Shown: positions 20,209-48,816 of the stretch, piece after piece
Layout: each line of letters starts with the position of its first letter
How positions within the stretch are numbered: the stretch's first letter is position 1
Origin: Desulfatibacillum sp.
Lineage (GTDB): Bacteria; Desulfobacterota; Desulfobacteria; Desulfobacterales; SpSt-501
DNA: 64,000 nucleotides
Assembly: GCA_020725555.1 (NCBI GenBank)
Contig: DYEU01000032.1
Coordinates: 241,656-305,655, forward strand
Direction of reading: 5' to 3'
Notes under the pieces: model-generated
Told to the model about the DNA's origin: nothing
Seen by the model: only the letters and a program-made list of their open reading frames with translations
Databases searched by the model: none
Program-made: the position numbers and the translations under genes

Positions 20209-21405
20209 TCAGCCCCTTGCGGGGGGCTCCTCCGGCGCGGCGGGGGCGTTCGCGACCCGCCCCGTCCCGAGAAGAGCGAGCACCCGCCGGGCGACCTCGA
20301 AGGCGGCCTCCGGCCGGGCCAGGCGCTTCGCCTGACGCTTGAGGCGGCTCAGGCGCGGGGGGTCGGCGAGCAGGCGTTCGATTTTCCAGGTCAGGGTGGC
20401 GATCGGCCCGATTTTCACTGCCGCCCCGTTTTCCAGCAGATAATCGGCGTTGCGGCTTTCCTGTCCGGGAATGGGGTTGACGATCGCAAACGGCGTCCCC
20501 CGCGCCAGGATCTCGGAAGCGGTCAGGCCGCCCGGCTTGCTGATCACGAGATCGGCGACCGCAAGCCAGCGGTCCAGCTCGGAGGTGTATCCCAGCACCC
20601 GGAGGCGATGGGGGGAAGGCGGCGCAAGCGCCGCCAGGCGCCGCTCGAGCCGGGCGTTGCGGCCGCAGACCACGACCGCCTCGATCGGCCGCGCGATCGC
20701 CAGCACGGATGCGAGAATCGACTCGACCGGGCCGACGCCGAACCCGCCGGAGAGCAGGAGCACGATCGGCCGCTCGCCCTGGCACCCCAGGGCCTGCAGG
20801 CAGGGCCCGCGGCGCACGGGGCGGCCGAAGGCCGGATGGATCGGGATCCCCGTGACCGCGATCCGCTCCGCGGAAACGCCGAGCGCCCGGACGTAGGCCG
20901 CGCACTCGGAGGTGGCAAGGAAGTAATGCTCGCAGGGCTCCTGGACCCAGAGGCGATGGGCCATGAAATCGGTCACCACCGTCACCTGGGGGAGGCTCGT
21001 CTTGCCGCGCCGTCGCAGCGAGGCGATGATCTCCGCAGGCAGAAAGTGGGTGTTGATCACGAGGTCCCAGGGCTTGGCCTGCAGGAGCTTGAGAAAGGGC
21101 TTGAGGTTCTGCTTCTCCAGGGCGACCCGCAGCGCGGCCGCCGCCGGGTCTTTGGGGGAGGGACGGTCGAGGACGTCGTAGACGAAGCCGAGAAGATGCG
21201 GGGCGCGGTTTGCGAAATCGAGGTAGCCCTTGCCGTAGAGACGGCGGAAGGCCTTGCTGGCCAGGCTCAGGACGTCGCGGTTCTCGATCGCGCAGCCGGG
21301 GGCGAGCTCCCGCAGGGCGAGCTCAACCGCCTCGGCGGCCCGCAGGTGCCCGCCGCCGACCGATGCCGAAAGAATGAGGATGCGCGCCGCGGGGGAAGGC
21401 TCCAT
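20209..21405 (-). CDS. MGDG-synthase/UgtP-family diacylglycerol glycosyltransferase (GT28-like)
   Basis: N-terminal ILILSASVGGGHLRAAEA motif and HFLPAEI..., typical of the MGDG_synth domain. ATG at 21405 chosen; the 29 codons upstream in the track ORF are Arg-rich and lack support. Confidence 0.8.
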   Translation of the reverse strand: MEPSPAARILILSASVGGGHLRAAEAVELALRELAPGCAIENRDVLSLASKAFRRLYGKGYLDFANRAPHLLGFVYDVLDRPSPKDPAAAALRVALEKQNLKPFLKLLQAKPWDLVINTHFLPAEIIASLRRRGKTSLPQVTVVTDFMAHRLWVQEPCEHYFLATSECAAYVRALGVSAERIAVTGIPIHPAFGRPVRRGPCLQALGCQGERPIVLLLSGGFGVGPVESILASVLAIARPIEAVVVCGRNARLERRLAALAPPSPHRLRVLGYTSELDRWLAVADLVISKPGGLTASEILARGTPFAIVNPIPGQESRNADYLLENGAAVKIGPIATLTWKIERLLADPPRLSRLKRQAKRLARPEAAFEVARRVLALLGTGRVANAPAAPEEPPARG

Positions 21406-21499
21406 GTACCGCAACCGGGGGGGATGCCGGTTCACCTTCTTTCGAAGTACCGAAACGCGGCGCCGCAGGCAAGGGAAATTCCCGCCGGGCAATCCAAAT

Positions 21500-26247: not shown

Positions 26248-26265
26248 GGGTTTGAATTCGGTTAG
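26248..26265 (-). promoter_or_regulatory. Candidate internal Pho box upstream of pstS (two units)
   Basis: + strand GGGTTTG (26248) and CGGTTAG (26259), 11 bp apart (gene orientation CTAACCG aatt CAAACCC). About 100 bp upstream of the pstS ATG, directly after the pstA stop. Confidence 0.45.
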
Positions 26266-26269
26266 GGAC

Positions 26270-27574: not shown

Positions 27575-28955
27575 ATTGCTCCCGGTAACGGCGCACGATG
27601 TAGAGGGCGATGACGTTCAGGCAGAGGGTCACCACGAACAGCACCAGCCCCAGGGCGAAGGCGGCGAGCGTCTTGGGGCTGTCGAACTCCTGGTCGCCGA
27701 TCAGCAGGGTCACGATCTGGACGGTGACCGTGGTCACGGCCTTGAGGGGATTCACGGTGAGGTTGGCGGCAAGACCCGCCGCCATGACCACGATCATCGT
27801 CTCCCCGATGGCCCGGGAGACCGCCAGGAGGATCCCCCCCATGATCCCGGGGAGCGCGGCGGGAACGACCACGCGCCGTACGGTCTCCGAGCGGGTCGCC
27901 CCCAGGCTGTAGGCGCCGTCCCGCAGCGACTGGGGGACGGCGTTGATGAAATCGTCGGAGAGCGAGCAGACGAAGGGGATGATCATGATCCCCATGACGA
28001 CGCCGGCGGCAAGGGCGCTCTCCGAGGCGACATCGAGCCCGAGCAGGCCGCCTGCGTCGCGGACGAAGGGGGCGACGGTCAGGGCGGCGAAAAAGCCGTA
28101 CACCACGGTGGGGATGCCGGCGAGAATCTCGATCAGCGGCTTGGCGACCGCGCGGAAGCTCTTTCCGGCATACTCCGAGAGATAGATGGCCGACATCAGC
28201 CCGATCGGGACCGCGACCACCATGGCGATGGCGGAGATGAGGGCCGTCCCCAGAAAGACGGGGACGGCGCCGAAGGCACCCGAGGCCCCCACCTGGTCGG
28301 CGCGGATCGCCATCTGCGGGCTCCAGGAGAGGCCGAAGAGAAACTCCCCGACGGGGATGATGCGGAAAAAGAGAACCGCCTCGTAGACCACGGAAAGGAC
28401 GATGCCGACGGTGGTGAAAACGGCGATCGTGGAGCAGGCGACGAGCATGGCGGTCAAAATGCCCTCGACGTGGTTGCGCGCCCGGAGCGTCGGCCGCAGG
28501 CGGCGGCGCACGAGGAGGGCCATGGCGGCGGCCAGGGAGAGCGTCACCACGGCGAGCGCCTGGCGGCTCAGGCCGAGAAGCCGCCGGTAGGTCGCCGCGG
28601 CCTCCCGCACCGCCGGATCCGCTGCCGTCTCCTCGAAACGCCCGCCGGCGACATTGCGGATGTCGTTCACGATCAGGCTGAGCCGGTCCCCGGGCAGGCT
28701 GCGCTGGGGCTCGGGGAGGCCCTCGACGACGATCCGGGTGATCACCTGGGATTCAAAGGCAAGCCAGAGGGCAAACAGCAAGATCGCCGGCAGGGCGCAC
28801 CACAGAGCGACCAGGGCGCCGTGATAATTCGGCCGGGAGTGCAACCTCTGCGCCCGGCCGCCTGCGCCGGCCAGGGCGAAAGCCCGGCGCCGGCCGAGGT
28901 GGTAGGCCGCCGCGGAAAAGGCGAGCAGCACGGCAAGCAGGACAAACGGAGGCAT
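27567..28955 (-). CDS. pstC: Phosphate ABC transporter permease PstC (long form)
   Basis: SRAIGETMIVVMAAG loop typical of PstC. 462 aa with an about 150-aa N-terminal extension. 8-nt overlap with pstA. Confidence 0.88.
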   Translation of the reverse strand: MPPFVLLAVLLAFSAAAYHLGRRRAFALAGAGGRAQRLHSRPNYHGALVALWCALPAILLFALWLAFESQVITRIVVEGLPEPQRSLPGDRLSLIVNDIRNVAGGRFEETAADPAVREAAATYRRLLGLSRQALAVVTLSLAAAMALLVRRRLRPTLRARNHVEGILTAMLVACSTIAVFTTVGIVLSVVYEAVLFFRIIPVGEFLFGLSWSPQMAIRADQVGASGAFGAVPVFLGTALISAIAMVVAVPIGLMSAIYLSEYAGKSFRAVAKPLIEILAGIPTVVYGFFAALTVAPFVRDAGGLLGLDVASESALAAGVVMGIMIIPFVCSLSDDFINAVPQSLRDGAYSLGATRSETVRRVVVPAALPGIMGGILLAVSRAIGETMIVVMAAGLAANLTVNPLKAVTTVTVQIVTLLIGDQEFDSPKTLAAFALGLVLFVVTLCLNVIALYIVRRYREQYE

Positions 28956-29025
28956 CGACCCCTTTCTCCGCCCATGGCGGCCCGGGAGTCCGGGCCTGTC
29001 GAAGAGGACGTAGTGTTGCGGTCTT

Positions 29026-29065
29026 TGGTTAGGTTTCGGTTAGACTTCGGTTAACATCTCGTTAG
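29026..29065 (-). promoter_or_regulatory. Pho box array upstream of pstC (four units at exact 11-bp phase)
   Basis: + strand TGGTTAG (29026), CGGTTAG (29037), CGGTTAA (29048) and TCGTTAG (29059). Gene orientation CTAACGA/TTAACCG/CTAACCG/CTAACCA. 71-110 bp upstream of the pstC ATG. Confidence 0.7.
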
Positions 29066-29547: not shown

Positions 29548-31920
29548 ATGGGCGACATCGTCCGCATCGAAGACCCCGAGGCCATCGACGAAACCCGGGT
29601 CGGCCGCAAGTTCGCCGCCCTGGCTCGAGCCTCGCGCCTGGGCATCGCCGTGCCCGAGGCCGTGGCCGTCGGCACGCGGGCCCACGCCTCCTGGCGCAGC
29701 TCCGGCGCATGGCCCGAGGGGTTGAAGGAGGAGGTCCTCGCGGCAGCGGAGCGGCTGGGATGGGACGCGGGCCTTGCGGTCCGATCCTCGGCCGTCAAGG
29801 AGGATCTCGCCGGCTGCAGCTTTGCCGGGCAATACCGCAGCTTTCTCCAAGTCTCCACGCCGGAGGAGCTTTTCCGCCGCGTGGAAGATTGCTGGGATAG
29901 CGCCGCCTCGGAAACAGTGCGTGCCTACCTCGCGGCGCTCGCCGTCGAGGGGGCGGAAGCGGAAGCCCCGCTTCTCGCCGTGGTGCTGCAGCGCATGGTC
30001 CCGGCCGCCTGGTCGGGGGTGGCCTTCAGCCGTGACCCGCGGGCGCCGCAGCGCTCGGAGGCGCTCTGGATCGAGGCCGTGGCGGGAACGGCGGAATCGC
30101 TGGTTTCGGGCCTCGCGATCCCCTGGCGGGTCCGGATCGCCCGCCGGCCGGGAGCGCGGCCCGAAGCGGACGCCGGAAGCGCCCGCCGGATGCCGCCGGC
30201 TCTCCCCTGGAAGGCGGTCGCCGGCCTGCTCCTCACTCTGGAACAACGGCTGGGGGAAAACGGCCTGGACATCGAGTGGGCGGTCGACCGCGACGGCATC
30301 CTCTGGCTCCTCCAGCTCCGACCCATCACCGCGGCCGCAGCCGTCCCCGAGGACCTTCCGCCCCCCGGAATCTGGACGCGACGGCTGGCCGAGGATCTCT
30401 GGGGCGACCGGATCGAGCCGTTTTTCGCCGATGTCCTGCTGCGGCATGCGCCGCGTTTCGATCTCTCCCGCATTCTGACCCGCCTGGGCATCCCCCCGGT
30501 GCGGCCGTCGCTCGCCGTCATCGCCGGTTACCTCTACCTGAACGCCGGGGCCCTCTCCCGGATGGCGGCACAGCTTCCGCGGCGCTGGCGCCCCGCCGAG
30601 CTCGAAGGCCTTCTTCCGCCCGGGGCGAGGCCGGAGGCGACGCCGGCCCCGCCCTTTCCGCGACGGGGTGAGCTTTTGCTGCGGCTGCTCGCCCTGCCGT
30701 TTCGCGAGCCGCAATGCCTGCCGGGCATCTGCCTGCGGCGGGCGGCACGCACCGTCGCCGCCCTCGGCGAGCGCATCGCCGAGAGCCTCAGGCTTCCCGG
30801 GGGGACGGCCGCGGAGCGCCTCGCAGCACTTGCCTTCGACCTCGAAACCCTCGCCCGGATCCAGGAGAACAACCAGTGGCCTTACTTCCACGCCGCCGCC
30901 CTGCTCGCGGCTCTCCGCGAGGCGGCAGCCCGCCGGGGCCTGCCGGGAGAGGATGTGCTGCGGCTGATCGGCCGCAAGGCCGACAACGTGACGATCCGGA
31001 TCGAGGCCTGGTTCCGCGAGACGGCCGCACGCATCCGCAGCCGGCCGGAACTGGCGCACCGCTTTGCCTCAGCCCCGGCGGGAAGCGATCTGCGGCGCAT
31101 CCTGCCGCCGGACCTGGACCGGGAGCTCGAGCGGTTCCTCGCCGCCTGGGGCGCACGCGCCCGGCACCGCTCGCTCCTTGTGCCGCGCTGGGCCGAAGCC
31201 CCGGAGGAGGTCTTGAGAATTCTTCAGGCGCTGGTCCGCAACCCCGCCCCCGCCCGGTCGGCCGGGGGCGGAGAGGTCCTCGCCCCGCCGCTTCTTCTCC
31301 GGTGGCTCTCCCGCCGGGTGACCCGGTTTCTCGACCTGCGGGAGGAGCTGCGCTTTCTCCTCGACCGGGCGCTCTACCGCATCCGGATCGATCTTCTGGC
31401 GTTGGGGCGGCTGCTCGGAGCGGGGGAAGAGATCTTTTACCTCAGGCTCGAGGAGATCGAGGCGCTCGCGCTGGGCGCACTTGCCCTCCCGGAGGCCCTT
31501 TCCCGGGCCGGAAGGCGCAAGCGGCGTTTCGCGACAGCGCCCGATCCGAGCCCCTTCTGGATCGACGGCCGGCCCCACCACGAGCTGACCACCGCGCACC
31601 GCATCCTGCGGGGCATCGGGGCGAGCCCGGGGACGGCGACCGGGCGGGCCGTTCTGGTGACCGACCCGGCGGATCCCTCGGTGCGCCGCGGCGACATTCT
31701 CGTGGCGCGGCACACCGACCCCGGGTGGACGCCGGTCTTCAGCATCGCGGGGGGGGTCGTCACCGAGGAGGGCGGGCTCCTGAATCACTGTGCGATCGTG
31801 GCCCGCGAGCTGGGCATCCCCACCGTCGTCGGGGTTCGGGGGGCGATGCGCCTTGTGCCGCAGGGCTCGCGGATCACCGTGGACGGCAGCTCGGGGACGA
31901 TCCTGATTCCGCCGGAATGA
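29548..31920 (+). CDS. PEP-synthase-family phosphotransferase with rifampicin-phosphotransferase-like architecture (ATP-grasp, helical middle domain, C-terminal swivel His domain)
   Basis: N-terminal VGRKFAALA...SSAVKEDLAGCSFAGQY...DIEWAVDRDGILWLLQLRP. Middle GIWTRRLAEDLWGD. C-terminal GIGASPGTATGRAV...GGLLNHCAIVARELGIPTVVG. Confidence 0.85.
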   Translation: MGDIVRIEDPEAIDETRVGRKFAALARASRLGIAVPEAVAVGTRAHASWRSSGAWPEGLKEEVLAAAERLGWDAGLAVRSSAVKEDLAGCSFAGQYRSFLQVSTPEELFRRVEDCWDSAASETVRAYLAALAVEGAEAEAPLLAVVLQRMVPAAWSGVAFSRDPRAPQRSEALWIEAVAGTAESLVSGLAIPWRVRIARRPGARPEADAGSARRMPPALPWKAVAGLLLTLEQRLGENGLDIEWAVDRDGILWLLQLRPITAAAAVPEDLPPPGIWTRRLAEDLWGDRIEPFFADVLLRHAPRFDLSRILTRLGIPPVRPSLAVIAGYLYLNAGALSRMAAQLPRRWRPAELEGLLPPGARPEATPAPPFPRRGELLLRLLALPFREPQCLPGICLRRAARTVAALGERIAESLRLPGGTAAERLAALAFDLETLARIQENNQWPYFHAAALLAALREAAARRGLPGEDVLRLIGRKADNVTIRIEAWFRETAARIRSRPELAHRFASAPAGSDLRRILPPDLDRELERFLAAWGARARHRSLLVPRWAEAPEEVLRILQALVRNPAPARSAGGGEVLAPPLLLRWLSRRVTRFLDLREELRFLLDRALYRIRIDLLALGRLLGAGEEIFYLRLEEIEALALGALALPEALSRAGRRKRRFATAPDPSPFWIDGRPHHELTTAHRILRGIGASPGTATGRAVLVTDPADPSVRRGDILVARHTDPGWTPVFSIAGGVVTEEGGLLNHCAIVARELGIPTVVGVRGAMRLVPQGSRITVDGSSGTILIPPE

Positions 31921-32995
31921 GCGGCCGGGCGGACCGCCTGCCGCCCGCCGGCACCGCCTCGACCGGAAAGAGGGTCTCCTCCCAGCAGCGGCGCGCCAGG
32001 TCCGCCGGATCTTCCCACGAGCAGCCTGCGATCCAGCGGGCGATGTGCGCGGCCACGTCGGGGTAGCGGACGCGGACGCCGCCGGGGCGCCGCAGAAAGG
32101 CCTCCACCGCCCTTCCGTCCAGCCGGTTCATCACCTCCCCCAGGCCGAGCAGGGTGAGCGCCCGCGCGTTGGAGAGCTGCTCCATCTGACCGCCTAGCGG
32201 CTTGACGAGGATCTTCTTGCCGAGCTGCAGCGCCTCGCTGGCGAGCTCGAAGCCGGCATTGGTGATCACCCCGGCGCTCTCGGCGAGCGCCCGGAGAAAG
32301 CCGGCGCGGCGGAGCGGACGCCAGCGGAGATGCCCCTCGTCGACGGGGCGCTCAAGATGATGATGGATACGAAATTCCCACCCGGAAAAGGGGGCGAGGA
32401 GCCGGCGGATGTCCTCGATCTCCTCAAAGGGCAGGTAGACAAGAATGCATCTCTCGCGCACCAGACCGCCGGCCGGCAGCTCCGGCACCACGGGGGGAAG
32501 GATCGGCTGGCCGAAGGAATGCCAGTGCAGGCCCAGGCGGTGGCGGGCCGGGGCGAACCGCCGCAGGACGAACCAGGCGAAGGGGTCGAAGCCGGCGACG
32601 GGGATGCGGTAGTGGAAGGCGTACTGGTGGCCGATGCCGATCGCGGGCAGGCGGTGGCGGAGCGCGATGCGCGCGGTGATGGGCTCGAAGTCGGTGATCA
32701 CCAGATCCACGCCGCGGGCGTCCTCGAGGCGGATGTCGCGGTAGAAACGGGCGAGGTTCAACCCGGCGAGCGTCCGGAACGGCTGGAGCCTTCCCCGGCG
32801 CGTGGCGAAGGTGAGCCCGGGCAACACCCGGTAGGGCTCGAAGGCCTCCATGTCCCAGAGGCGCTCGGCGGGGCGGCCGCTCACGATCACGCGCACCTCG
32901 TGCCCGTCCTGCTTGAGGCGGCGGACGATTTCCCGCGAGCGGCTGAGATGGCCGTTGCCCGTTCCCTGGACGCCGTAGAGGATGCGCAAACCCAT
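31874..32995 (-). CDS. MJ1255/VC2487-family (GT28/MurG-like fold) glycosyltransferase
   Basis: N-terminal ILYGVQGTGNGHLSRSREI motif characteristic of this family. 373 aa. The 3' end overlaps the convergent RPH-like gene by 47 nt. Confidence 0.75.
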   Translation of the reverse strand: MGLRILYGVQGTGNGHLSRSREIVRRLKQDGHEVRVIVSGRPAERLWDMEAFEPYRVLPGLTFATRRGRLQPFRTLAGLNLARFYRDIRLEDARGVDLVITDFEPITARIALRHRLPAIGIGHQYAFHYRIPVAGFDPFAWFVLRRFAPARHRLGLHWHSFGQPILPPVVPELPAGGLVRERCILVYLPFEEIEDIRRLLAPFSGWEFRIHHHLERPVDEGHLRWRPLRRAGFLRALAESAGVITNAGFELASEALQLGKKILVKPLGGQMEQLSNARALTLLGLGEVMNRLDGRAVEAFLRRPGGVRVRYPDVAAHIARWIAGCSWEDPADLARRCWEETLFPVEAVPAGGRRSARPLIPAESGSSPSCRPR

Positions 32996-33582: not shown

Positions 33583-34776
33583 TTACAGCCCGGTGGCGAT
33601 CACGAGGTCCGTGATCGGGCCGCGGGACTTCTCCCCCTTGAGCACGAGGTGCGCGTAGATGCGGCTTCCCCTGAACTTCTTGACCAACCAGTTCAGGCCG
33701 TTGTTCTCGGGGCTGAGGTAGGGCGGGTCCACCTGGCGGGTGTCTCCCAGGCAGAAGCATTTCACCCCTTCGCCCATGCGGGAGAGCAGGGTGCGGCACT
33801 CCTGGCGCGAGAGGTTCTGCATTTCGTCGATGATGACGACCGCCTGTTCCAGGTTCATGCCGCGGATGAAATTGAGCGGGAGAATTTCGAAGAGCCGGGG
33901 GTTGAACAGCGGCGGGTTCGTCTCCGCGTCCTGAAACAGCTTGTTCGCCGGGCGCAGGCGGTGGAGCTTGAGCACCAGGTCGGAGACGGCGCGCGTGTAG
34001 GGCTCCATTTTTTCGTCGAGCCTCCCCGGCAGGTAGCCCAGCTTCTGGCCGATTTCGACGGTGGGCTTGACCACGTAGATTTTCTCGTGGCTCTTGCGCT
34101 CCAAGACGAGCGTCAAGGCGCAGGCGAGCGCCAGAAAGCTCTTGCCGTAGCCCGCTTCGCTCTGGATCGAAACCACCAGAAGCTCCGGGTTCATCATCAG
34201 CTCGATCGCCAGGTTCTGGTAGACGTTGCGCGGGGTGACCTTCCAGGCCCGGTGCAGGTAGTCGATCGTCTTCTCCCCTTCGGCGCCGACAAAGACCGGC
34301 TTTCCCTGCTCGTTCCAGAAGAAGCTGTTCACCGGGGCCCGGGCGCGGTCGGGGGCAAAGCCGGTAAAATGCTCGGCCTCGGAGCGGAAGGGGACGGACT
34401 CGCGGTAAATTTCGCTCGGGATGCCGTTCAGCCGGGCCTCGAGCTGCAGCATGCGGTCGTTGGTCACGAGAATCGGCCGCTCGAGGCGGCTTGCCCGGAT
34501 CTCCTCGAGGATGAATCGGTCCACGCGGTCGGCGAAGCGGGCGGCGACGCCGGCGGTTTCGAGGACCTGGAAGGCATCCGGGTCCGCCATGAGCTGGTCC
34601 ACCACGCGGCCGACGACATGGCGGTGCCGGGGGTGCTTGCGAAGATGGTTCAGCTCGAGGAGGACGTGGTGCGGAATGAAAATGCGGTTCTGGTTTCCGT
34701 TGCGCAGCTTGAGGAGGCATTGCGGGTCTTCGAGCAAGACGTTGGTGTCGACAACATACTCCTTGGCTTCATTCAT
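33583..34776 (-). CDS. phoH: PhoH-family ATPase with N-terminal PIN domain (YlaK-like)
   Basis: PIN start YVVDTNVLLEDP. P-loop SIQSEAGYGKSFLA. PhoH core VVIIDEMQNL. ATG at 34776 has a GGAGGA RBS 9 nt upstream (track start 34785 is a TTG). Confidence 0.85.
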   Translation of the reverse strand: MNEAKEYVVDTNVLLEDPQCLLKLRNGNQNRIFIPHHVLLELNHLRKHPRHRHVVGRVVDQLMADPDAFQVLETAGVAARFADRVDRFILEEIRASRLERPILVTNDRMLQLEARLNGIPSEIYRESVPFRSEAEHFTGFAPDRARAPVNSFFWNEQGKPVFVGAEGEKTIDYLHRAWKVTPRNVYQNLAIELMMNPELLVVSIQSEAGYGKSFLALACALTLVLERKSHEKIYVVKPTVEIGQKLGYLPGRLDEKMEPYTRAVSDLVLKLHRLRPANKLFQDAETNPPLFNPRLFEILPLNFIRGMNLEQAVVIIDEMQNLSRQECRTLLSRMGEGVKCFCLGDTRQVDPPYLSPENNGLNWLVKKFRGSRIYAHLVLKGEKSRGPITDLVIATGL

Positions 34777-34922: not shown

Positions 34923-36773
34923 TCAGATCCCTCCCTGGGCGGCCCGCCGTACCGGCCGGCGCCGCCCCGCGGCCTCATCCTCGGCCCGCACGCGGGCCTC
35001 GAGCCGGATTTTTTCCGCCGGCACCCCTTTCTCTATCAGCTCGCGGGCGACCCCCGGCGAGGGGACGTAGACCGTGCGCACATGGCCGTAGAACCAAGCG
35101 AGGTATTTCCAGGCGAGGTCCTCGATGAAGGTGTCGTGCGTGAGCTGGCGCGCCAGGCGGGGAATCGCCTCGCTGTGGGTCGCCTCCAGCGGCAGGCCGA
35201 GGAAGCGGCCGATGAAGAGCCCGGCAAGACCGGTCGGCCCGGAACCCGCCAGGTGAAGACGCTCGATCGGCTGCGAAAAACAGAAATCGAGCATCTCCAG
35301 GAGCGGGGGGTAGACCAGCCGTTCCCCCGGGAGCTCCTCGAAGGCATAGACGCCAATCGGTGCAAAGCGCCGGACCGCCCCGCCTTCCGTGTCCGCTTCG
35401 CAGGTGAGCACCACCCGCTCCGCTTCCTCCCGGCCCCCGGCGGCGGCCAGCCCCTGAGCGGCGTTTTCGGCGAAGACGGCGCAGCGCAAGGGCCGCGCCG
35501 CGGCGCCCTGCGCGCCCAGCTGCCCCGCCGCCTCGCGGGCCAGGCGGATCTGGGCGTTGTGGTGGGCGAAGCCCACGAAGTAGGGGGCGAGCAGGGTGCA
35601 GAACCCGCCGGCGGAGCCGATCGTGTGAAAGATGCTGAAGAGATTCGCCCCCGAGAGGTGGTCAAGCAGGTGGTTGGCGAAGCCGAGCAAAATGCGGCTC
35701 GACATCTTGTGAATGAAGTCGAACCAGCGTTCGGCCGACGGCTGCGGCACCTGCTTCGCCCTGCGCGGGAGAGCGAAGAGTTCCGGCTCATCGCGGATCA
35801 GGCGCGCCGTTTCCTTGCGCAGGAGATCGACCAGGGGCCCCGGCAGGCTGCCCCGGATCCGGCGCAAGCGGCGGGCCTGCCAGAGAAAGTGCAACCGGGA
35901 GAGTATCCCGCCCTCTTCTTCCTCCGGCGTCCCGCGCAGGCTGCGATCCACGAACCGCAGCAGAAAATCGTGCGGCACCTGGGCACCGAGATCGAGCCGG
36001 GCGCGATAGAACTGGTAGGCGATGCTGTAGAGGTTGTGGGCGAGATGCTTCGGCGAGGAGGGCTCCTCGATCACCTGCGCCGCCCCCGCCTCGATCCCCG
36101 CGAAGAACTCCGCCGCCGACCGGGCGCCCTCGACCCGGGTGAAGGTGCGGCCGATGGTGAGGGAGCTGTGATCATCGGAGCCGCCGATCAGCCGCTTGAC
36201 CCAAGGGAGGGGGCCGACGGGGGCGATCCCGTGCCGGTCCGCAAGCTGCCCAAGCGCCTGCGGGGTCAGTGCCGCGAGCATCTCGCGCAGGCGGCGGTTC
36301 GCCTCGGGGTGGCTGTCGCCGTTGATTTCGAAGACCGAAAACAGCAGCAACAGTTTCTCGATGTGCGCGGGGGTCAGCCGGTCGTTGACCGCGTAAAACG
36401 GATGGGCCGCGGCGTGAAACACCCCTTCCTGCCGCAGGTAGCCGAGAAGCTCGTAGAGGTTCGGGCGCAGTTTCTGGATCTCGGCGTGTTGGGCTTCGCT
36501 GATGCGGTAGACGAGGACATGCACCTTGCAGCCGTCCTCCGGCAAATAGCTCGTCACCTCCTCGCCGATCACGACGCCGGGGAGGTGCGCGATCTCGAGC
36601 GCCCCCTCGATGCGGTTGTGATCGGTGACCGTCACCAGATCCATGCCGCGACGGCGGGCGAGGTGATAGAGCCGGAGGGGTTCGGTAAAGCTCTCGGGAC
36701 AGCCGATCTTCTGCAGCAGCCACTGGGAGGGCCGCTGCGAGTGCCGTGAGTGCACATGCAGGTCCGCTTGCAT
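34923..36773 (-). CDS. Fusion protein: N-terminal PHP-domain metallophosphoesterase, helical linker, and a GT4-type glycosyltransferase N-terminal half only
   Basis: PHP motifs ADLHVHSRHS, DLVTVTDHN and GGSDDHS. The C-terminal part aligns by eye to the SqdX/GT4 N-domain (IERLHLAGSGPTGLAGL..., LEATHSE, VYVPSPGVARELIEKGVPAEKIRL) but ends where the nucleotide-sugar-binding C-domain should start. ATG at 36773 chosen. Confidence 0.7.
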   Translation of the reverse strand: MQADLHVHSRHSQRPSQWLLQKIGCPESFTEPLRLYHLARRRGMDLVTVTDHNRIEGALEIAHLPGVVIGEEVTSYLPEDGCKVHVLVYRISEAQHAEIQKLRPNLYELLGYLRQEGVFHAAAHPFYAVNDRLTPAHIEKLLLLFSVFEINGDSHPEANRRLREMLAALTPQALGQLADRHGIAPVGPLPWVKRLIGGSDDHSSLTIGRTFTRVEGARSAAEFFAGIEAGAAQVIEEPSSPKHLAHNLYSIAYQFYRARLDLGAQVPHDFLLRFVDRSLRGTPEEEEGGILSRLHFLWQARRLRRIRGSLPGPLVDLLRKETARLIRDEPELFALPRRAKQVPQPSAERWFDFIHKMSSRILLGFANHLLDHLSGANLFSIFHTIGSAGGFCTLLAPYFVGFAHHNAQIRLAREAAGQLGAQGAAARPLRCAVFAENAAQGLAAAGGREEAERVVLTCEADTEGGAVRRFAPIGVYAFEELPGERLVYPPLLEMLDFCFSQPIERLHLAGSGPTGLAGLFIGRFLGLPLEATHSEAIPRLARQLTHDTFIEDLAWKYLAWFYGHVRTVYVPSPGVARELIEKGVPAEKIRLEARVRAEDEAAGRRRPVRRAAQGGI

Positions 36774-36827
36774 ACGCTCCTTTCCGCATCGCGTCGCCAC
36801 GCGTTTGCCCATCATTCAACCCCGTGC

Positions 36828-36904: not shown

Positions 36905-37531
36905 TCAGGGGGCGGGCACCCACCAGGGGGCCGCGGCCACGCCGAGGCCGATCGCGAAAAGGGAGGCCCCGCAGAGGCGCGCAATCAGCGCTGGAGGCAG
37001 GCGGGCGGCGAGAGGGACGAGGGCGTTCGCCCCCAGGGCGAGCAGAGGCGCCCAGAGTGCCGATCCCGTGAACACCCCCGCGGCCCAAGCGGTCGCCGCC
37101 GCAGGGCCGCCGCCGCTAAGGTTCAAGGCCGAGAAGGACGCGCTCAGCACGAGAATCGGCAGCGGATTGGAGAGCATGAGGACGGCCGAGGTGAAAAACG
37201 CCCCCCGCAGCCGCCCTCCCCGATCCGCTCGCGCCGCGGCGCCGGCCGCCTGCCCGGGCGGCAGGCGGCGGAAGAGGCGCAGGCCGACGCCGGCCAGCAC
37301 GGCTCCGGCCGCAGGATGGAAGAGATCGCGGTGTTGCTGGAGAAAAGCGTTCAGCAGCGCAAGCCCCCAGCCCGCCGCCAAGGCGTAGAGGGCATCCACG
37401 ACCGCCGCCCCCAGCACGGCGAAGATCCCGGCCAGGCGGCCGTCGCTGAGCGTCCGCTGCAGGCTAAGAATGCCGATCGGGCCGAGCGGGGCGCAGAGAA
37501 TGAAGCCGATCGCCGTTCCTTCCCAGAACAT
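36905..37531 (-). CDS. LysE/RhtB-family amino-acid exporter
   Basis: About 208 aa with 6 hydrophobic segments. N-terminal GFILCAPLGPIGIL motif typical of the LysE superfamily. ATG at 37531 chosen. Confidence 0.75.
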   Translation of the reverse strand: MFWEGTAIGFILCAPLGPIGILSLQRTLSDGRLAGIFAVLGAAVVDALYALAAGWGLALLNAFLQQHRDLFHPAAGAVLAGVGLRLFRRLPPGQAAGAAARADRGGRLRGAFFTSAVLMLSNPLPILVLSASFSALNLSGGGPAAATAWAAGVFTGSALWAPLLALGANALVPLAARLPPALIARLCGASLFAIGLGVAAAPWWVPAP

Positions 37532-37644
37532 CCCGAGGGGGTGCCTCGCTTTCCGCGTTGCTTCGGTCGCCTGGCGTTTTGCCCCACTCCGGCTCGGAGG
37601 CCGCCGCGCGGGATCAACGCACTCTTTGCGTTCATCCAACCCTC

Positions 37645-37819: not shown

Positions 37820-39694
37820 ATGCGCACCGAGATCCCTTCCCCCCGCGTGTTCTCTCTCGTCCCGCAATCGGCCGCCGGCACCGGTTGGCTGGCCTGCGCC
37901 CTGCGTCCGGTCGAAGGGCTTCTCGGGCTGCGGGAATGCGAGGCCGTCTATCGCGGCCTGGCGGCGATCGAGGACCCCCGGCGATTCCTGCAGGCGACGC
38001 TCGCGGCCCTCGGCGTGCGCTGCGCCGGGCCGGAAGGGATGGAACAGATCCCCCCCGCGGGCCCGACGGTCGTCGTGGCCAACCACCCCTACGGCGGCAT
38101 CGAGGGGGTCCTGCTCGCCGAACGGCTGCTGTCGGTGCGCGGCGACGTGAAAATCCTCGCGAACTACCTGCTCCACCGCATCCCCCAGCTCCGGCCCCTC
38201 GTCATCCCCGTCGACCCCTTCGGCCGGCGGGGAGCGGCGTCCGCGAACCTCGCCCCGCTGCGACAGGCGATGCGCTGGGTGGCCCAGGGCGGCCTCCTGC
38301 TGGTGTTCCCCGCAGGCGAGGTCGCGCACCTGAGGCTCTCGGCGCGCGAAATCACCGATCCGCCCTGGAACCCCGCCGTGGCCCGGATCGTGCGTCACGC
38401 CCGGGCCACGGTCGTCCCCGTGTTCGTCCGCGGTCGCAACCGCATGCGCTTTCATCTCGCAGGCCTCGTCCACCCGCGGCTGCGGACCGCGCTTCTCGGC
38501 CGCGAGTTGCTCCACCGGCGGGGAAAGCCGCTGGACGTCAAGATCGGCAGCCCGATCCCCTACCGCTGGCTGCAAGCCCATCGCGACGATCGCCGCCTGA
38601 TGGAGTACCTGCGTTGGCGGACCTACGTCCTGGGCTGCACCGCCCGCCCCCCGCGGCGCTTTCCGGCCCTTCCGGTTGCAGCCTTGGGCCGCAAGCAGGC
38701 GGCGATCGCCCCCGCCCAGGACCCCGCCCGGCTCGCCGCCGAAATCGCCGCCCTGCCCGCCGACCGGCTTCTTGCGCGCAGCGGCGCCTTCCGGGTCTTT
38801 CTGGCGGAAGCCCGCGACATCCCGCGGGTCCTGCTCGAAATCGGCCGCCTGCGTGAACTCACGTTTCGCGCGGCCGCGGAAGGAACCGGCAAGCCCTTCG
38901 ATCTCGACCGCTTCGATTCGCTCTACCTCCACCTGTTCATCTGGGACGAGGGGGAGAAAAGGATCGTCGGGGCCTACCGCATCGGCCAAACCGACCGCAT
39001 CCTCGCGTGCCACGGCCGGGAGGGTCTCTACACGACGACCCTCTTTCACAGCCGCATGGAATTTTTCCGCAAAATCGGGCCCGCCCTCGAGATGGGCCGC
39101 TCCTTCATCCGGCCGGAATACCAGAAGTCCTACTCCTCGCTGCTGCTCCTGTGGAAAGGGATCGGAAGCTTCGTCGCCCGCAACCCGCGGTACCGGACGC
39201 TCTTCGGACCCGTGAGCATCAGCCGCGACTACAGCGAACTCTCGCGCCGCCTGATCGCCTCCACGCTCCTCCAGCACAGCCAGGCGAAGGACCTCTCGCT
39301 CATGGTCCGGCCCCGCAAGCCCGCCGCCCTGAAGCCTCCGCGGGTGCCCGGCTGCGGACGCATCGGCCGCAACCTCTCGTTTCAGGATTTCCGGGAGGTC
39401 TGCGCGCTGATCGCGGACCTCGAACTGCAACAAAAAGAGGTTCCCGTCCTGCTGCGCCAGTACCTGAACTTGGGCGGGCAGTTGCTCGCATTCAGCATCG
39501 ACCGCAGTTTCGGAAACGTGATGGACGGCCTGATCGTGGTCGATCTGCTGAAAACCGACCGCCGCACCCTCAGGCGCTATCTGGGGGAGGAGGGCGCGGC
39601 AACCTTTCTTTCGTTCCATGAGGAACGGGGTGGCGTGGAATCGGGGGTTGCCGAAGACGCCGGGGGAACCCTGCGGCCGGCGGAAAGCGCCTGA
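37820..39694 (+). CDS. Bifunctional acyltransferase, OlsF-like: N-terminal PlsC-type (HX4D-like NHPYGGIEG) O-acyltransferase plus C-terminal OlsB/GNAT-type N-acyltransferase
   Basis: VVANHPYGGIEG and FPAGEV blocks (lysophospholipid acyltransferase). C-terminal LRELTFRAAAEGTGKPFDLDRFD...YRIG...GRSFIRPEYQ typical of the OlsB/hemolysin-like N-acyltransferase domain. Confidence 0.8.
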   Translation: MRTEIPSPRVFSLVPQSAAGTGWLACALRPVEGLLGLRECEAVYRGLAAIEDPRRFLQATLAALGVRCAGPEGMEQIPPAGPTVVVANHPYGGIEGVLLAERLLSVRGDVKILANYLLHRIPQLRPLVIPVDPFGRRGAASANLAPLRQAMRWVAQGGLLLVFPAGEVAHLRLSAREITDPPWNPAVARIVRHARATVVPVFVRGRNRMRFHLAGLVHPRLRTALLGRELLHRRGKPLDVKIGSPIPYRWLQAHRDDRRLMEYLRWRTYVLGCTARPPRRFPALPVAALGRKQAAIAPAQDPARLAAEIAALPADRLLARSGAFRVFLAEARDIPRVLLEIGRLRELTFRAAAEGTGKPFDLDRFDSLYLHLFIWDEGEKRIVGAYRIGQTDRILACHGREGLYTTTLFHSRMEFFRKIGPALEMGRSFIRPEYQKSYSSLLLLWKGIGSFVARNPRYRTLFGPVSISRDYSELSRRLIASTLLQHSQAKDLSLMVRPRKPAALKPPRVPGCGRIGRNLSFQDFREVCALIADLELQQKEVPVLLRQYLNLGGQLLAFSIDRSFGNVMDGLIVVDLLKTDRRTLRRYLGEEGAATFLSFHEERGGVESGVAEDAGGTLRPAESA

Positions 39695-42778: not shown

Positions 42779-43398
42779 TGGCCGCCGCGCCTCCCCCCCG
42801 GCAGGCGGCGCTCCGCATCCGCCGCGCACGGCCGGCGGACGCCCCCTTCGTCGCCGCCCGGATGGCCGAGCTGGGCTACCCCTGCGGCGCGGAGGAGATG
42901 GCCGCCCGCTTGGGCAGGCTCCTTTCCCGCCGGGAGTGTCGCGTCGCGGTCGCCCAAGAGGGAGAACGGATCGTCGGGGTGGTCGCCGCCTGTATCGAAC
43001 ACGGGATCGAGGCCGATCGGCCCCTGGGGCGGGTCACGGCGCTCGCGGTCGCGGCGGAGTGTCGCGGCCGGGGGGTCGGCGCCTGCCTGCTCGCGGATGC
43101 CGAGGCGTGGCTCCGAAAGAAGGGGGCGTTCTGCGCGGTCGTGAACAGCGCGACCCGGCGGCGGTGCGCCCACCGCTTTTACCGCCGCGAGGGCTACCGA
43201 ATGACGGGCCTGCGCTTCCGCAAGGAGCTTCCGCCCCCCGCGCCCGCGGGCCGCGGTGCCAGCAGCGCCTCCAGCCCCGGCGCCCCCGCCGCCACCTGCC
43301 ACTCGCCCGGCGCGGTCTCCCGGGCGGCGAAAAACCCCCCGGCCTCCTCCACCAGAATCCTACCTGCAGCGAAATCCCACAGCCGGATCCCCTCGTAG
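42778..43398 (+). CDS. GNAT-family N-acetyltransferase (PhnO-like by position)
   Basis: Acetyl-CoA motif ECRGRGVGACLLADAEAWL. ATG overlaps the phnE stop (TGATG). The GNAT fold ends near residue 150; the last about 55 codons run through the 3' end of the convergent IMPase-family gene. Confidence 0.7.
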   Translation: MAAAPPPRQAALRIRRARPADAPFVAARMAELGYPCGAEEMAARLGRLLSRRECRVAVAQEGERIVGVVAACIEHGIEADRPLGRVTALAVAAECRGRGVGACLLADAEAWLRKKGAFCAVVNSATRRRCAHRFYRREGYRMTGLRFRKELPPPAPAGRGASSASSPGAPAATCHSPGAVSRAAKNPPASSTRILPAAKSHSRIPS

Positions 43399-44036
43399 AA
43401 GAGCCCGTCGAGGTAGCCGGCCGCGATGTAGGCGAGCTCGCCGGCGGCCGCCCCAAGGCAGCGCGCCTTGCGCACGCGGGGGAGAAGGTGCGCCAGCCGC
43501 CGCGCCATCCGCCGCATCAGGGGCTCCGTTTTGCCGAAGCTCACCGAAACGACCGCCCGCTCAGGCGAAACCCCCTCCCGCCGCCGCAGCGGCGTGCCGT
43601 TCACCTCCCCCCCCCGGCCGGCGACGGCCGAGAACATCTCGCCGCTGAAGGGCAGAAAGACCGCGCCGGCGACGGGCGTGGGGGGGGAGGCGCCGTTGCG
43701 CCGGTAACAGGCGACCGCGGCGCAGAAGAAGGGCAGGCCCTGCAGGAAATTGACCGTGCCGTCGAGGGGGTCGACGATCCAGAGGTAGCCGCCGTCGCCG
43801 GGGATCTCGCCGCCCTCCTCGCCGAGCACGGCGTGATCCGGAAAGCGGGAGCGGACCGTCTCCACCACGGCCGCCTCGCACAGCCGGTCGGTGGCGAGCT
43901 TGACGTCGTGAAGCGCCTGCGCGCGGACCGCGGGCCCGCGCCGGAAATGCTGCATCTGGAGCTCGCCTGCGCGGCGTGCCGCCTCCCGGGCCGTCGCCGC
44001 GAGCTCCCGCGCCGAGGGCGGCCGGCCGGCCCTCAC
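43194..44036 (-). CDS. Inositol-monophosphatase-family (SuhB/CysQ-like) phosphatase, terminal gene of the C-P lyase operon
   Basis: AVLGEEGG, WIVDPLDGTVNF and WDFAAG motifs. 4-nt overlap with the phnM stop. Confidence 0.85.
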   Translation of the reverse strand: MRAGRPPSARELAATAREAARRAGELQMQHFRRGPAVRAQALHDVKLATDRLCEAAVVETVRSRFPDHAVLGEEGGEIPGDGGYLWIVDPLDGTVNFLQGLPFFCAAVACYRRNGASPPTPVAGAVFLPFSGEMFSAVAGRGGEVNGTPLRRREGVSPERAVVSVSFGKTEPLMRRMARRLAHLLPRVRKARCLGAAAGELAYIAAGYLDGLFYEGIRLWDFAAGRILVEEAGGFFAARETAPGEWQVAAGAPGLEALLAPRPAGAGGGSSLRKRRPVIR

Positions 44037-45241
44037 CGCTGCCCCCCCGGATCGGCCGGGTCGGCCGCGCGGAAGACTTCGCGCCCGCCGACGTAGGTCC
44101 GCACCACGGCCGGGACCCTGCGGCCGTCGTCGACGAGAACGAGGTCGGCCGCCTTGCCCTCCTCGATCGACCCGGTGAGGCCGTCGATGCCCGCCGCCCG
44201 GGCCGGGTTCAGGCTGATCAGCCTCACGGCGGAGGGCAGGTCGAGGATGCCCTCGCCGTGCAGCTTGAGGGCGGCGTGCAAGAGCGACATGGGGGCGTAG
44301 TCCGAGCAGAGGATGTCGCCCAGGCCGGCGCGCAGGGCCTCGCGGGCGGAGAGGTTCCCGGTGAGCGAGGCCCCGCGGAGCACGTTGGGTGAGCCGAGCG
44401 AGACCATCAACCCCCGACTGCGGGCGGCCTGTGCCGCCTCCCGGTTGACCGGGAACTCGGAGAGCGAAACCCCCAGGCGGCTCACCGCCTCGATTTTGGC
44501 TTCGCTGTCGTCGTCGTGGCTCGCCATGCGGATGCCCCGCGCCCGGCAGGCCGCCGCCAGGCGCTCGATGCCCAACCAGGAGAGGCGGGCGCTGGCCTCG
44601 AGCCGGCGGGCGATGACGCGCTCGATGTGATCCTCCGTGAGGCCGCGCGCCTTGGCGTAGTAGGCGCGGAAATGCTCGATCTCGCGGAACTGGCCCTGGC
44701 CGGGGGTGTGGTCCATGAGGGAGAAGAAGTCGATCCGGCCATGGCCGATCAGGTCCTCGACCGTCTCCACGGCCTCCGTGTTGGTGATCTCGTAGCGGGC
44801 GTGAATGCGGGTGCGGGCCTGGAACCCGCCCCGCAGCTCGTGGATCTGGCCGATGAGAAAGTGGGCCATTTCGGCCGTGCGGAAGGGCGGGTTTTCATCG
44901 GAGGGGAGAAAGCAGAGGCAGTGGTAGATGGTCGTCACCCCGCAGGCGACGAGCTGCTTGTCGAGCTCGTGCAGCGCCACATCGACGGGAAAACGCCCTC
45001 CCGGCCGCGGCTGGATCGCGTTTTCGATCACATCGCTGTGGATGTCGATGAAGCCGGGGACGAGCAGCCGGCCGCGGGCGTCGACAGCCGGCCGCGAAGA
45101 CACTCCCGCGGCCGAGCGGGACACGGCCCGGATGATCCCCCCTTCGATCTCCACGGCGGCGTCGGGCAGGACCGCCTCGGGGGTGACGACACGGGCGTTG
45201 ACGATGCGAAACGCGGGCGGCGGAGAATTCCACTCGTTCAT
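44033..45241 (-). CDS. phnM: Alpha-D-ribose 1-methylphosphonate 5-triphosphate diphosphatase PhnM
   Basis: Amidohydrolase fold, GFIDIHSD and MASHDDD motifs. ATG at 45241 overlaps the phnL stop (ATGA). Confidence 0.88.
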   Translation of the reverse strand: MNEWNSPPPAFRIVNARVVTPEAVLPDAAVEIEGGIIRAVSRSAAGVSSRPAVDARGRLLVPGFIDIHSDVIENAIQPRPGGRFPVDVALHELDKQLVACGVTTIYHCLCFLPSDENPPFRTAEMAHFLIGQIHELRGGFQARTRIHARYEITNTEAVETVEDLIGHGRIDFFSLMDHTPGQGQFREIEHFRAYYAKARGLTEDHIERVIARRLEASARLSWLGIERLAAACRARGIRMASHDDDSEAKIEAVSRLGVSLSEFPVNREAAQAARSRGLMVSLGSPNVLRGASLTGNLSAREALRAGLGDILCSDYAPMSLLHAALKLHGEGILDLPSAVRLISLNPARAAGIDGLTGSIEEGKAADLVLVDDGRRVPAVVRTYVGGREVFRAADPADPGGQR

Positions 45242-45945
45242 CGCTGGGGTTCCTTTGCGGGCAGGGCGCACCCGTCGTCCATCAGGGAGGCGAGGGGTGA
45301 CCCCTCGTGAAAGACGGCGACCATCGTGGTGCCGCGGGCCTTCATCTCGGAGAGCACCGCGACCACGACCTCCATGGCGCGCGGGTCCAGGGAGGCCGTG
45401 GGCTCGTCGAGCAGCAGCAGGCGCGGGGGGCGGATGACCGCCCGGGCGAAGTTGACGCGCTGTTTTTCGCCGCCGCTGAAGGTCGCGGGGTAGGCGTCCC
45501 AGAGCGCCCGGTCGATCCCCAGCCGCTCAAGCAGCGCCTGCGCGCGCATCCGGGCCTCCGCCGGCGGGGTCCCCGCCGCCGTGAGCGGCTCGGCCACGAC
45601 ATCCACGGCGGGGACGCGCGGCAGCGCGTGCAGAAACTGCGTGACGTAGCCCATCTCCCGGCTGCGGATGCGCAGCACCTCGGTTTCCGAGGCCCGGGCG
45701 AGGTCGATGTCCCCGCCGTCCGCCGTGCGGTAGCGGATGCTGCCGCGGCCCGGGAGGTAACTGCGGTAGATGCACTTGAGGACCGAGCTCTTGCCCGCCC
45801 CGCTCGGGCCCGTCAGGGCGAGCGCCGCCCCGGCGGGCAGGCGGAAGGAGACCCCCTCGAAGCCGAGGATCTCCTTGCCGCCCTGCATGTGGCAAACGAA
45901 CCGTTTGGCCAGGTCTTCGACGCGCAGCAGGATGTCCGGGCTCAC
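45238..45945 (-). CDS. phnL: C-P lyase system ATP-binding protein PhnL
   Basis: GPSGAGKSS, FSGGEKQRVNFARA and LLLDEPTASLD. Position between phnK and phnM. Confidence 0.88.
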   Translation of the reverse strand: MSPDILLRVEDLAKRFVCHMQGGKEILGFEGVSFRLPAGAALALTGPSGAGKSSVLKCIYRSYLPGRGSIRYRTADGGDIDLARASETEVLRIRSREMGYVTQFLHALPRVPAVDVVAEPLTAAGTPPAEARMRAQALLERLGIDRALWDAYPATFSGGEKQRVNFARAVIRPPRLLLLDEPTASLDPRAMEVVVAVLSEMKARGTTMVAVFHEGSPLASLMDDGCALPAKEPQR

Positions 45946-48815: not shown

Positions 48816-48816
48816 G

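Follow-up and report, generated by a model that had tools for sequence, protein, structure and literature searches.

Two described systems lie close to the gene analysed here. In the first, plcP, the gene of a phospholipase C, is often found in one operon with the glycosyltransferase (GT) gene agt (PMC4796936). The second belongs to the sulfate reducer Oleidesulfovibrio alaskensis, where it is represented by the gene Dde_3613, an entry in the supplementary fitness table of Bosak et al. 2016. The transposon mutant of Dde_3613 grows poorly at 2-10 uM phosphate and is without monoglycosyldiacylglycerol (MGDG) and glycuronic acid diacylglycerol (GADG), the glycolipids that replace most of the phospholipid in the wild type (PMC5193443). 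In that work Dde_3613 was handled as an Agt homologue, and the word PHP is absent from the main text (PMC5193443). We considered a stretch of 64,000 nt from Desulfatibacillum sp. (contig DYEU01000032.1, positions 241,656 to 305,655), which as a whole is called the window, and in it a shortened relative of this gene (the PHP-half gene), encoding a PHP-type phosphoesterase domain, a helical linker and only the N-terminal half (GT-N) of a GT4 glycosyltransferase. We conclude that the protein descends from the Desulfobacterota family of PHP-GT4 fusions, whose members have ~817 amino acids (aa), that an in-frame internal deletion removed the ~190-aa nucleotide-sugar-binding domain and spared the last residues, and that PHP, linker and GT-N are selected as a unit that is unable to bind a nucleotide sugar.

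The full-length parent family is very large, represented by more than 585 genome matches, in Desulfobacterales, Syntrophobacterales and Desulfovibrionales. A search with its member from Fundidesulfovibrio led to an 816-aa protein of O. alaskensis, in a cluster that includes ABB40406.1 of strain G20. The entry for Dde_3613 in the table of Bosak et al. 2016 matches the neighbourhood of this O. alaskensis locus, which makes Dde_3613 a full-length member of the family.

The open reading frame (ORF) of the PHP-half gene spans 34923..36815 on the minus strand. An in-frame Met at 36773 gives a 616-aa protein starting with MQADLHVHS, an N-terminus common to all homologues that fixes the start at this position. 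An earlier note, made from the sequence alone, had parsed the protein into PHP domain, linker and the N-domain of a GT4 enzyme without its C-domain, and this parsing was confirmed. The motifs that it quoted were found where it had placed them: HVHSRHS at aa 6, VTDHN at aa 49, GGSDDHS at aa 197 and the interdomain junction VYVPSPGVARELIEKGVPAEKIRL at aa 568-591. Its remark that the ORF ends shortly after the junction and close to phoH was also correct, as the stop falls 25 codons past the KIRL of the junction and 146 bp separate it from the phoH ATG at 34776. In the AlphaFold2 model, which was computed from an alignment of 82 relatives (mean predicted local distance difference test, pLDDT, 85.7; predicted template modelling score 0.84), strands and helices alternate up to ~aa 235, followed by helices over aa 241-418, a Rossmann half over aa 430-591 and a disordered tail.

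The assignment of the first domain to PHP is a structural one, and the domain is a divergent branch of this superfamily. With Foldseek, the best PHP match among the structures of the Protein Data Bank (PDB) was RNase AM (7ug9, E 3.5e-7), and the further matches 9etk, BAD_1165 (3o0f) and Cv1693 (2yb1) extended the range to E 1e-4. Together with a pLDDT mostly >90 over aa 30-250, these matches indicate the distorted (beta/alpha)7 barrel of PHP enzymes. Among the sequence models, CehA_McbA_metalo of NCBIfam matched with E 1e-10, yet under its own cut-off; the Pfam models PF02811 (12.1 bits vs 26.4) and PHP_C (15.4 bits vs 21.3) missed their thresholds, and lax thresholds for the Pfam PHP models brought sub-threshold matches only. 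Sequence searches of the PDB gave chance PDZ matches only for the whole protein (E > 0.07), no match for a PHP-only profile and, for a whole-family profile, only GT4 C-domains, which were brought in by the full-length rows of the alignment. All the same, the metal-ligand motifs HxH, DH, E, H, H and DxH are present, and to judge from the sequence their positions are intact. Precisely, H6, H8, D51-H52, E72, H85, H124 and D200-D201-H202 are invariant or nearly so among 82 to 120 relatives, and the His/Asp/Glu positions are kept equally in full-length and truncated relatives. TrpH-type enzymes have an Asp after HxH that, by eye, is not conserved here.

The GT4 N-terminal Rossmann half was recognized directly by Pfam, with PF13439 (39.6 bits vs a cut-off of 28.5, E 7e-10) and PF13579 (33.7 bits vs 29.7) both matching aa 435-590 of 616. 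Its pLDDT is mostly >90 over aa 430-591, and Foldseek aligned it over ~180-200 columns to the N-halves of GT4 enzymes of 360-390 aa (GlgM, MshA, BshA), that is, to half a GT-B fold; the C-terminal region is hence GT-like in the predicted structure, as the earlier note had held. The C-terminal donor domain (PF00534, with the EX7E region) was not found. Its complete absence, another claim of that note, was borne out, since PF00534 matched neither in the ORF nor in the spacer nor elsewhere in the window, and tblastn with five GT4 C-domains detected no remnant in the window (best E 0.04).

Between these two domains, no Pfam match and no PDB match was obtained for the linker (aa 236-372). The long, moderately hydrophobic helix that follows it contains the region of highest pairwise identity in the protein (aa 373-405; 0.87 within the truncated clade, 0.76 among full-length forms). 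Interaction of this helix with the membrane is possible. Membrane association is only a suggestion because the maximum of the 19-residue Kyte-Doolittle average, 1.45 at aa 378-396, is under the usual transmembrane threshold.

We searched for homologues among 5.8 billion proteins, using as representatives clusters at 90% identity. The 45 nearest representatives (59-100% identity) were all 585-650 aa in length and none of them (0/45) had a GT4 C-domain. Relatives at <=53% identity were mostly 783-849 aa in length and had PF00534. Truncated proteins that reach the junction end 19-40 aa beyond it in the alignment, where full-length proteins run ~212 aa further. In a neighbour-joining (NJ) tree the 45 truncated proteins formed one clade, and the half form was found in 14 species-level genomes of uncultured Desulfobacterales. 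Importantly for the earlier note, which would have given up its case if all orthologues had carried a complete GT-B fold, the truncated form is therefore conserved among the nearest orthologues.

These data bear on the simplest objection, namely that the short protein results from a frameshift, a misassembly or a recent neutral inactivation. In its favour, the 25-aa tail is of low complexity and evolves almost neutrally, and the motifs of the N-half are eroded. Against it, the same architecture recurs in 45 clusters and 14 species genomes, the ratio of non-synonymous to synonymous substitutions (dN/dS) is far <1 over aa 1-591 at a synonymous divergence (dS) of up to ~1, and the 146 bp downstream hold no C-domain remnant. 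In five independent assemblies (the window and the loci L087, L001, L007 and L009), whose synonymous divergence from one another reaches ~0.9, the stop codons align with one another. We considered an artefact or pseudogene as refuted by the conserved architecture, the dN/dS values and the in-register stop codon, and give it next to no chance.

The C-termini indicate how the truncation arose. Truncated proteins end in ..LPQAV, ..RRGAI or ..MPEAI, and the window protein in ..AQGGI; these ends resemble those of full-length proteins (..PLPEAV, ..PLPKAI, ..LVQAV). In addition, the truncated protein P0101 keeps the last helix of the full-length enzyme right after the junction. The likeness of the C-termini and the retained helix argue for an internal in-frame deletion rather than a nonsense mutation. 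The tail itself has a pLDDT <50, and its dN/dS spans 0.34-1.76, with most pairs near or above 1. Functional conservation of the entire 25-aa tail was considered and dropped, because dN/dS is ~1 in most pairs and only the last residues look conserved. As a separate observation, full-length and truncated proteins (P0001-P0233; 34926-34940 in the window) share small-hydrophobic ends (..PLPxA[VI], ..VHAA, ..AVNA, ..AQGGI), which are conserved even where the preceding tail varies; these short C-termini may be a degron-like or docking signal.

The fold of the remaining GT4 half was kept and its motifs were not. In full-length relatives FTDTFYEVNGVA with the following TLQQQ helix, ATPGP and GTYHT are essentially invariant. 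The window protein has FAENAAQGLAAA instead of FTDTFYEVNGVA, GSGP instead of ATPGP and ATHSE instead of GTYHT, and nine residues of helix alpha1 are deleted in its clade; thus the invariant N-domain motifs (the FTDT..NGVA loop, ATPGP and GTYHT) are missing from the protein and its clade alike. The substitutions T435A, N442R, G531A, H534S and T535D affect sites >=95% conserved in full-length proteins, and V444A is also present. Because the donor domain is absent and the N-domain motifs are eroded, the remnant would be unable to act in glycosyl transfer.

Loss of motifs was not accompanied by neutral drift. By the Nei-Gojobori method, dN/dS over eleven pairs was 0.09-0.26 for the PHP domain, 0.04-0.24 for the linker and 0.14-0.27 for GT-N, with one pair at 0.42. 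The mean pairwise identity of GT-N in the truncated clade was 0.61 vs 0.76 for the PHP domain, and the corresponding values in full-length proteins were 0.66 vs 0.64 overall and 0.81 vs 0.80 in the 817-aa clade, so that there GT-N is conserved no less than the PHP domain. On these comparisons of sequences, GT-N appears to be a non-catalytic domain that is nonetheless selected and not drifting. Two proposals of the earlier note need amendment in this light. A half-GT serving as a lipid or membrane module is the best-fitting reading, given purifying selection and eroded motifs, but the domain was not recruited, as it came by loss from a full-length PHP-GT4 protein. Similarly, the term decayed fusion is right for the GT function, but neither for the domain, which does not drift neutrally, nor for the gene, which is not a pseudogene.

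Loss of the C-domain has been recurrent, with about six events near the clade of the window protein and roughly tens in the family as a whole. The NJ tree contained a second truncated clade (P0071, P0106 and P0118, of 666-673 aa) and, within the 817-aa sister clade, the isolated truncated proteins P0049/P0056, P0054, P0101 and P0062. The contigs of P0056 and P0101 show real deletions, with PAP2 22 bp or 140 bp past the shortened gene and phoH also gone. The older the truncation, the further the motifs have eroded: they are intact in the recent truncations, partially lost in P0062 and lost in both older clades. For a family-wide view, a HMMER scan with aa 1-430 was run over 1.84 billion representatives at 50% identity and returned 1685 relatives; we analysed the best 150 of these 1685 with 13 reference sequences, a set that contained 120 complete-looking proteins. 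Full-length proteins made up 67 of them and half forms 53 (~44%), the latter with a region of GT-N length followed by a tail of 10-70 aa, scattered through the tree. Both N-domain motifs were intact in 54/67 full-length forms vs 3/53 half forms. Fitch parsimony on the NJ tree counted ~30 changes from a full-length root, a rough figure that is probably an overestimate.

In metagenome scans, an alignment retrieved 80 loci and a single distant half form retrieved none. The metagenome locus L093 (2925-7648, 48% GC) holds, in this order, PAP2, a complete stand-alone GT4, a PHP-half form of 623 aa and a second complete stand-alone GT4, with a divergent gene for an 816-aa Sulfatase/LtaS-like protein upstream; it is an independent lineage that repeats the combination of half form, PAP2 and separate glycosyltransferases. 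In L141 (3715-5649) and L145 (6983-8884), both of ~70% GC, half forms of ~630-645 aa immediately follow a gene in which a HAD phosphatase is fused to an AIR-synthase-related (PurM/SelD-like) domain, and distant half forms were also seen among NeuB/CMP-sugar genes. An association of every half form with PAP2 and GT was dropped, since L141, L145 and L092 are in other contexts.

Table 1. Coordinates of the PHP-half gene, of its parts and of neighbouring genes in the window.
Feature	Position	Strand	Evidence or remark
Whole PHP-half gene	34923..36773	-	616-aa protein: PHP domain, helical linker, GT4 N-half
PHP-type phosphoesterase domain, aa 1-235	36069..36773	-	Foldseek; NCBIfam CehA_McbA_metalo
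Helical linker, aa 236-372	35658..36068	-	DSSP helices 241-375 in the AlphaFold2 model
Long, moderately hydrophobic helix, aa 373-420, core LFSIFHTIGSAGGFCTLLAPYFVGFA	35514..35657	-	Model helix 378-418
Orphan GT4 N-terminal Rossmann half, aa 430-591	35001..35486	-	PF13439, Foldseek; fold kept, motifs eroded
25-residue low-complexity tail and stop codon	34923..35000	-	Remnant of internal deletion
Operon lysE, PHP-half, PIN-phoH, PAP2, MJ1255-type GT	37639 down to 31874	-	
LysE-family exporter, upstream	36905..37639	-	Pfam LysE E 3.5e-14
PIN-PhoH gene, directly downstream	33583..34776	-	Pfam PhoH E 4.5e-39, PIN_4 E 3e-14
PAP2-family lipid phosphatase, 175 aa	32999..33526	-	Pfam PAP2 E 1e-23
Complete MJ1255/VC2487-family GT (GT-B)	31874..32995	-	TIGR00661 204 bits vs 195.9; PF13528 E 4.5e-39
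Divergent OlsF-like bifunctional acyltransferase (ornithine or amino-lipid synthase)	37820..39694	+	NF052615; Acyltransf_2 and Acetyltransf_5
pstS, pstA, pstC	25097-28955		
phoB/phoR-like genes	21599-24117		
GT28-type MGDG-synthase-like GT beside the phoB/phoR-like genes	20209..21492	-	PF06925 MGDG_synth E 5e-21

The gene lies in a Pho island that contains phoB/phoR-like genes, pstS/pstA/pstC, phoU, phnCDE, C-P lyase genes, an olsF-like gene and PIN-phoH (Table 1). To compare its surroundings we used a tblastn matrix of 89 related loci with flanks of 8-10 kb, in which the conserved partners of the PHP gene were OlsF, PhoH, PAP2, glycosyltransferases and pst. PIN-phoH has the same position in most related loci, and the upstream lysE is syntenic in L001, L003, L007-L009 and L087. 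The OlsF-like gene, adjacent in nearly all truncated loci, scores 378.8 bits with NF052615, under the equivalog cut-off of 620. The same gene also matches the glycine-lipid enzymes GlsB and GlsA, and candidate amino acids for its lipid are ornithine, glycine or another.

PAP2 and the MJ1255-type GT were found directly downstream in 16/16 truncated loci with enough flank. In full-length loci the two are confined to the 817-aa sister clade (L004/L022, L019, L023) and are absent from ~60 others; the independent deletions L090 and L091 also abut this pair. It follows that the truncations seen near the clade of the window protein all happened in a single lineage, in which PAP2 and another, complete GT were already part of the operon. 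This GT starts 3 nt past the stop of PAP2, and its alignment to TIGR00661 covers positions 4-312 of the 321 of the model. A literature search on PF13528, MJ1255 and TIGR00661 found no functional study. Judging from its sequence and position, we propose it as a candidate replacement for the lost GT4 activity. The GT28-type gene would be a second candidate glycolipid synthase, and in L002, L003, L011-L015, L021 and L033 a homologue of it is found at a distance of 2-8 kb from the truncated gene.

The earlier note had also asked whether the separate downstream GT could reconstitute the activity, that is, whether the N-half and a separate donor half, or this GT, rebuild a GT4 enzyme in trans. A glycosyltransferase gene is indeed present in the same operon, and the N-half has an intact fold under purifying selection. 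Nevertheless, no GT4 C-domain was found in any frame of the window or of the flanks of the 16 truncated loci, so that an orphan C-half is absent from these stretches; the downstream GT has both domains of a GT-B enzyme and belongs to a different family (TIGR00661); and in the N-half, part of helix alpha1 is missing and residues that do not vary in active relatives have been exchanged. We regard a split enzyme as extremely improbable, and functional replacement by the downstream GT as likelier than trans-complementation.

With these observations, and at a probability of about 0.55, we favour a reading in which the truncated PHP-GT4 derivative acts as a membrane-associated, lipid-remodelling phosphoesterase and glycosylation is carried out by separate enzymes. 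Its evolutionary and structural part we hold with high confidence; a lipid substrate for the PHP domain is more tentative and falls a little short of even odds. In this proposal, PHP-linker-GT-N would be a membrane-associated phosphoesterase of a Pho-regulated lipid-remodelling island, whose most likely substrate would be the phosphate or phospho-headgroup of a glycerophospholipid or phosphatidate. Its removal would make phosphate available and yield diacylglycerol. The dead N-domain, which corresponds to the acceptor or lipid-side half of lipid GT-B enzymes, would serve as a docking or substrate-binding scaffold, and the diacylglycerol would be glycosylated by the MJ1255-type GT, translationally coupled to PAP2, and/or by the product of the GT28 gene. 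We argue for a role on the lipid side because the repeated deletions always drop the UDP-binding half and keep the acceptor half.

A more specific form of the same idea, which we put forward with somewhat greater reserve, is that PHP-linker-GT-N would be a so far unrecognised type of lipid phosphoesterase. It would have the PHP fold, act as a phospholipase C or phosphatidate phosphatase without relation to PlcP, and bind lipid or dock to the membrane through the acceptor-side Rossmann half. The 'Agt' of sulfate-reducing bacteria (SRB) would then be a bifunctional converter of phospholipid to glycolipid, and the repeatedly evolved half forms stand-alone diacylglycerol generators feeding glycolipid and aminolipid synthases.

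Several points weigh against the favoured reading. We know of no PHP-family enzyme that acts on lipids, and a literature search linking PHP domains to lipid remodelling found nothing relevant. The nearest PHP structures act on nucleotides or RNA (RNase AM, the pAp phosphatase Cv1693). The hydrophobic helix, at a Kyte-Doolittle value of 1.45, stays under the usual transmembrane threshold. PAP2 in the operon could already make diacylglycerol from phosphatidate, which leaves the need for a PHP activity unexplained. Directly upstream of the PHP gene there is no Pho-box repeat, only isolated TAACC half-sites. Finally, distant half forms stand beside the HAD-AIRS fusion or NeuB/CMP-sugar genes, which are unrelated contexts, and the link to lipid remodelling may therefore not hold for the whole family.

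The nearest structures also underlie the rival explanation that the PHP domain acts on nucleotides or RNA, as a phosphate-scavenging nucleotidase or nuclease, with the half-GT as a structural scaffold only. Example substrates would be UDP, cleaved to UMP and Pi and so relieving product inhibition of a GT, pAp, or RNA alongside PIN-PhoH. Besides the top Foldseek matches to RNase AM and the pAp phosphatase 2yb1, this explanation has on its side that PIN-PhoH, predicted to act in RNA processing, is the most widespread neighbour of full-length and truncated forms, and that a Pho island suits any kind of phosphate salvage. Yet identity to the structural neighbours is only 14-17%, and phoH is deleted in L090 and L091 and lies elsewhere in the basal subclade. 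Moreover, it is the acceptor, lipid-side half that survives with PHP, and loss of the UDP-binding half argues against coupling to a nucleotide product. We consider a nucleotide or RNA substrate unlikely.

The last rival, also raised by the earlier note, assigns to the PHP domain the hydrolysis of 5-phosphoribosyl-1,2-cyclic phosphate, by which it would replace PhnP of the C-P lyase pathway as a PhnPP-like enzyme. A PHP-family cyclic phosphodiesterase is known, the window holds phnCDE and phnG-M, and neither PhnP nor PhnN was seen among the ORFs scanned in it. Even so, linkage to phn genes is not conserved: PhnJ lies ~10 kb from the PHP gene in the window, was within the flanks of 0/89 related loci, and partial phn synteny was limited to L001/L008. 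The family is moreover ancestrally fused to an Agt-type glycolipid synthase, and the last gene of the C-P lyase operon encodes an Inositol_P-family phosphatase, which could stand in for PhnP. We found no support for this role and judge it very improbable. As to the operon itself (phnG-M, 44033-49892), the inositol-monophosphatase-family gene at its end lies at 43194-44036 on the minus strand, with the same arrangement in L001; from its family membership, its product may process ribosyl-phosphate end products.

For the regulation of the island, we found TTNGGTTA repeated three times at 11-bp spacing upstream of pstC (29024-29055) and twice upstream of pstS (26246-26264). This repeat is a candidate PhoB box of the lineage, proposed from the sequence. 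Isolated TAACC half-sites occur upstream of lysE too (~37653, ~37675). A terminator and promoter scan returned 7 terminator-like sites vs 4.6 expected and 0 sigma-70-like sites. PADLOC gave no match for the PHP-half gene, PhoH or the downstream GT, and for this reason a role in anti-phage defence was dropped.

Other features of the window are reported for completeness. A gene of ~790 aa with PPDK_N, Rph_4th and PEP-utilizers domains (rifampicin-phosphotransferase-like) lies at 29548-31920 on the plus strand. In every locus with the PAP2-GT pair (the window, L001-L004, L007-L017, L019, L022, L023 and L033) this PPDK/Rph-like gene is convergent to the MJ1255-type GT and lies between the pair and pstC, and a second PPDK-like gene lies at 16052-18724 in the window. 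The GC content dips to 0.605 at 12001-14000, vs ~0.69 elsewhere, over the 5' part of a sigma-54 activator gene (10835-13279, minus strand) and the start of a TauE/DUF4881 pair (13822-15512).

Phosphorus-free glycolipids of sulfate reducers serve as markers of phosphate limitation in anoxic environments, and to our knowledge Dde_3613, with its conserved PHP domain, is their only genetically defined synthase. The half forms offer a direct experimental handle on the PHP activity of this environmentally important enzyme. They are in effect a natural dissection of it, in which PHP, linker and acceptor half can be selected independently of sugar transfer. The donor half was discarded repeatedly, in the lineage of the window only where PAP2 and another GT were in the operon, and it is unusual for a catalytically dead half-GT to be retained repeatedly and under selection. 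There are also practical consequences: surveys by homology to 'agt' will count many genes unable to make glycolipids, and GTs of the MJ1255/VC2487 family are pointed to as candidate glycolipid synthases.

We compared the protein with four described systems, starting from its separate domains. The TrpH/YciV-type PHP enzymes (RNase AM, the pAp phosphatase Cv1693, BAD_1165) are the best structural matches to aa 1-~235, with conserved His/Asp/Glu positions; at 14-17% identity, however, sequence profiles do not connect them to the window protein, and their known members are soluble nucleotide or RNA enzymes without linker or GT module. With the GT4 retaining enzymes (GlgM, MshA, BshA and PimA-type GT-B) the protein has in common the N-terminal Rossmann fold over aa 430-591, but it has half of the fold only, with neither EX7E nor donor site.

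The PlcP-Agt pair, known from SAR11 and Alphaproteobacteria, consists of a metallophosphoesterase-family phospholipase C and a GT4 enzyme. We propose the same logic here: diacylglycerol and phosphate are released by a phosphoesterase, and MGDG or GADG is built by a GT, under Pho control. The activities that are adjacent in PlcP-Agt are fused in the PHP-GT4 parent family. The likeness is nonetheless a functional analogy only, as the window protein shows no homology to PlcP, has no Metallophos match and has the PHP fold.

The closest system is thus the Dde_3613-type family of ~800-830 aa, to which the window protein is homologous from the PHP domain through the linker and the hydrophobic helix to the GT4 N-domain (identity 47-53%, query coverage 96%, E ~1e-180 to 1e-200) and with which it has in common a phosphate-starvation context of olsF, PIN-phoH and pst. 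Unlike Dde_3613, it has neither PF00534 nor the motifs invariant in the full-length family, and being truncated it does not have the complete bifunctional architecture of these synthases. Owing to the loss of PF00534 and of the motifs, it cannot be the MGDG/GADG synthase that Dde_3613 genetically is (PMC5193443). The literature that we searched describes neither the half form nor a role for the PHP domain. The half form is a domain-loss variant of a genetically characterised family.

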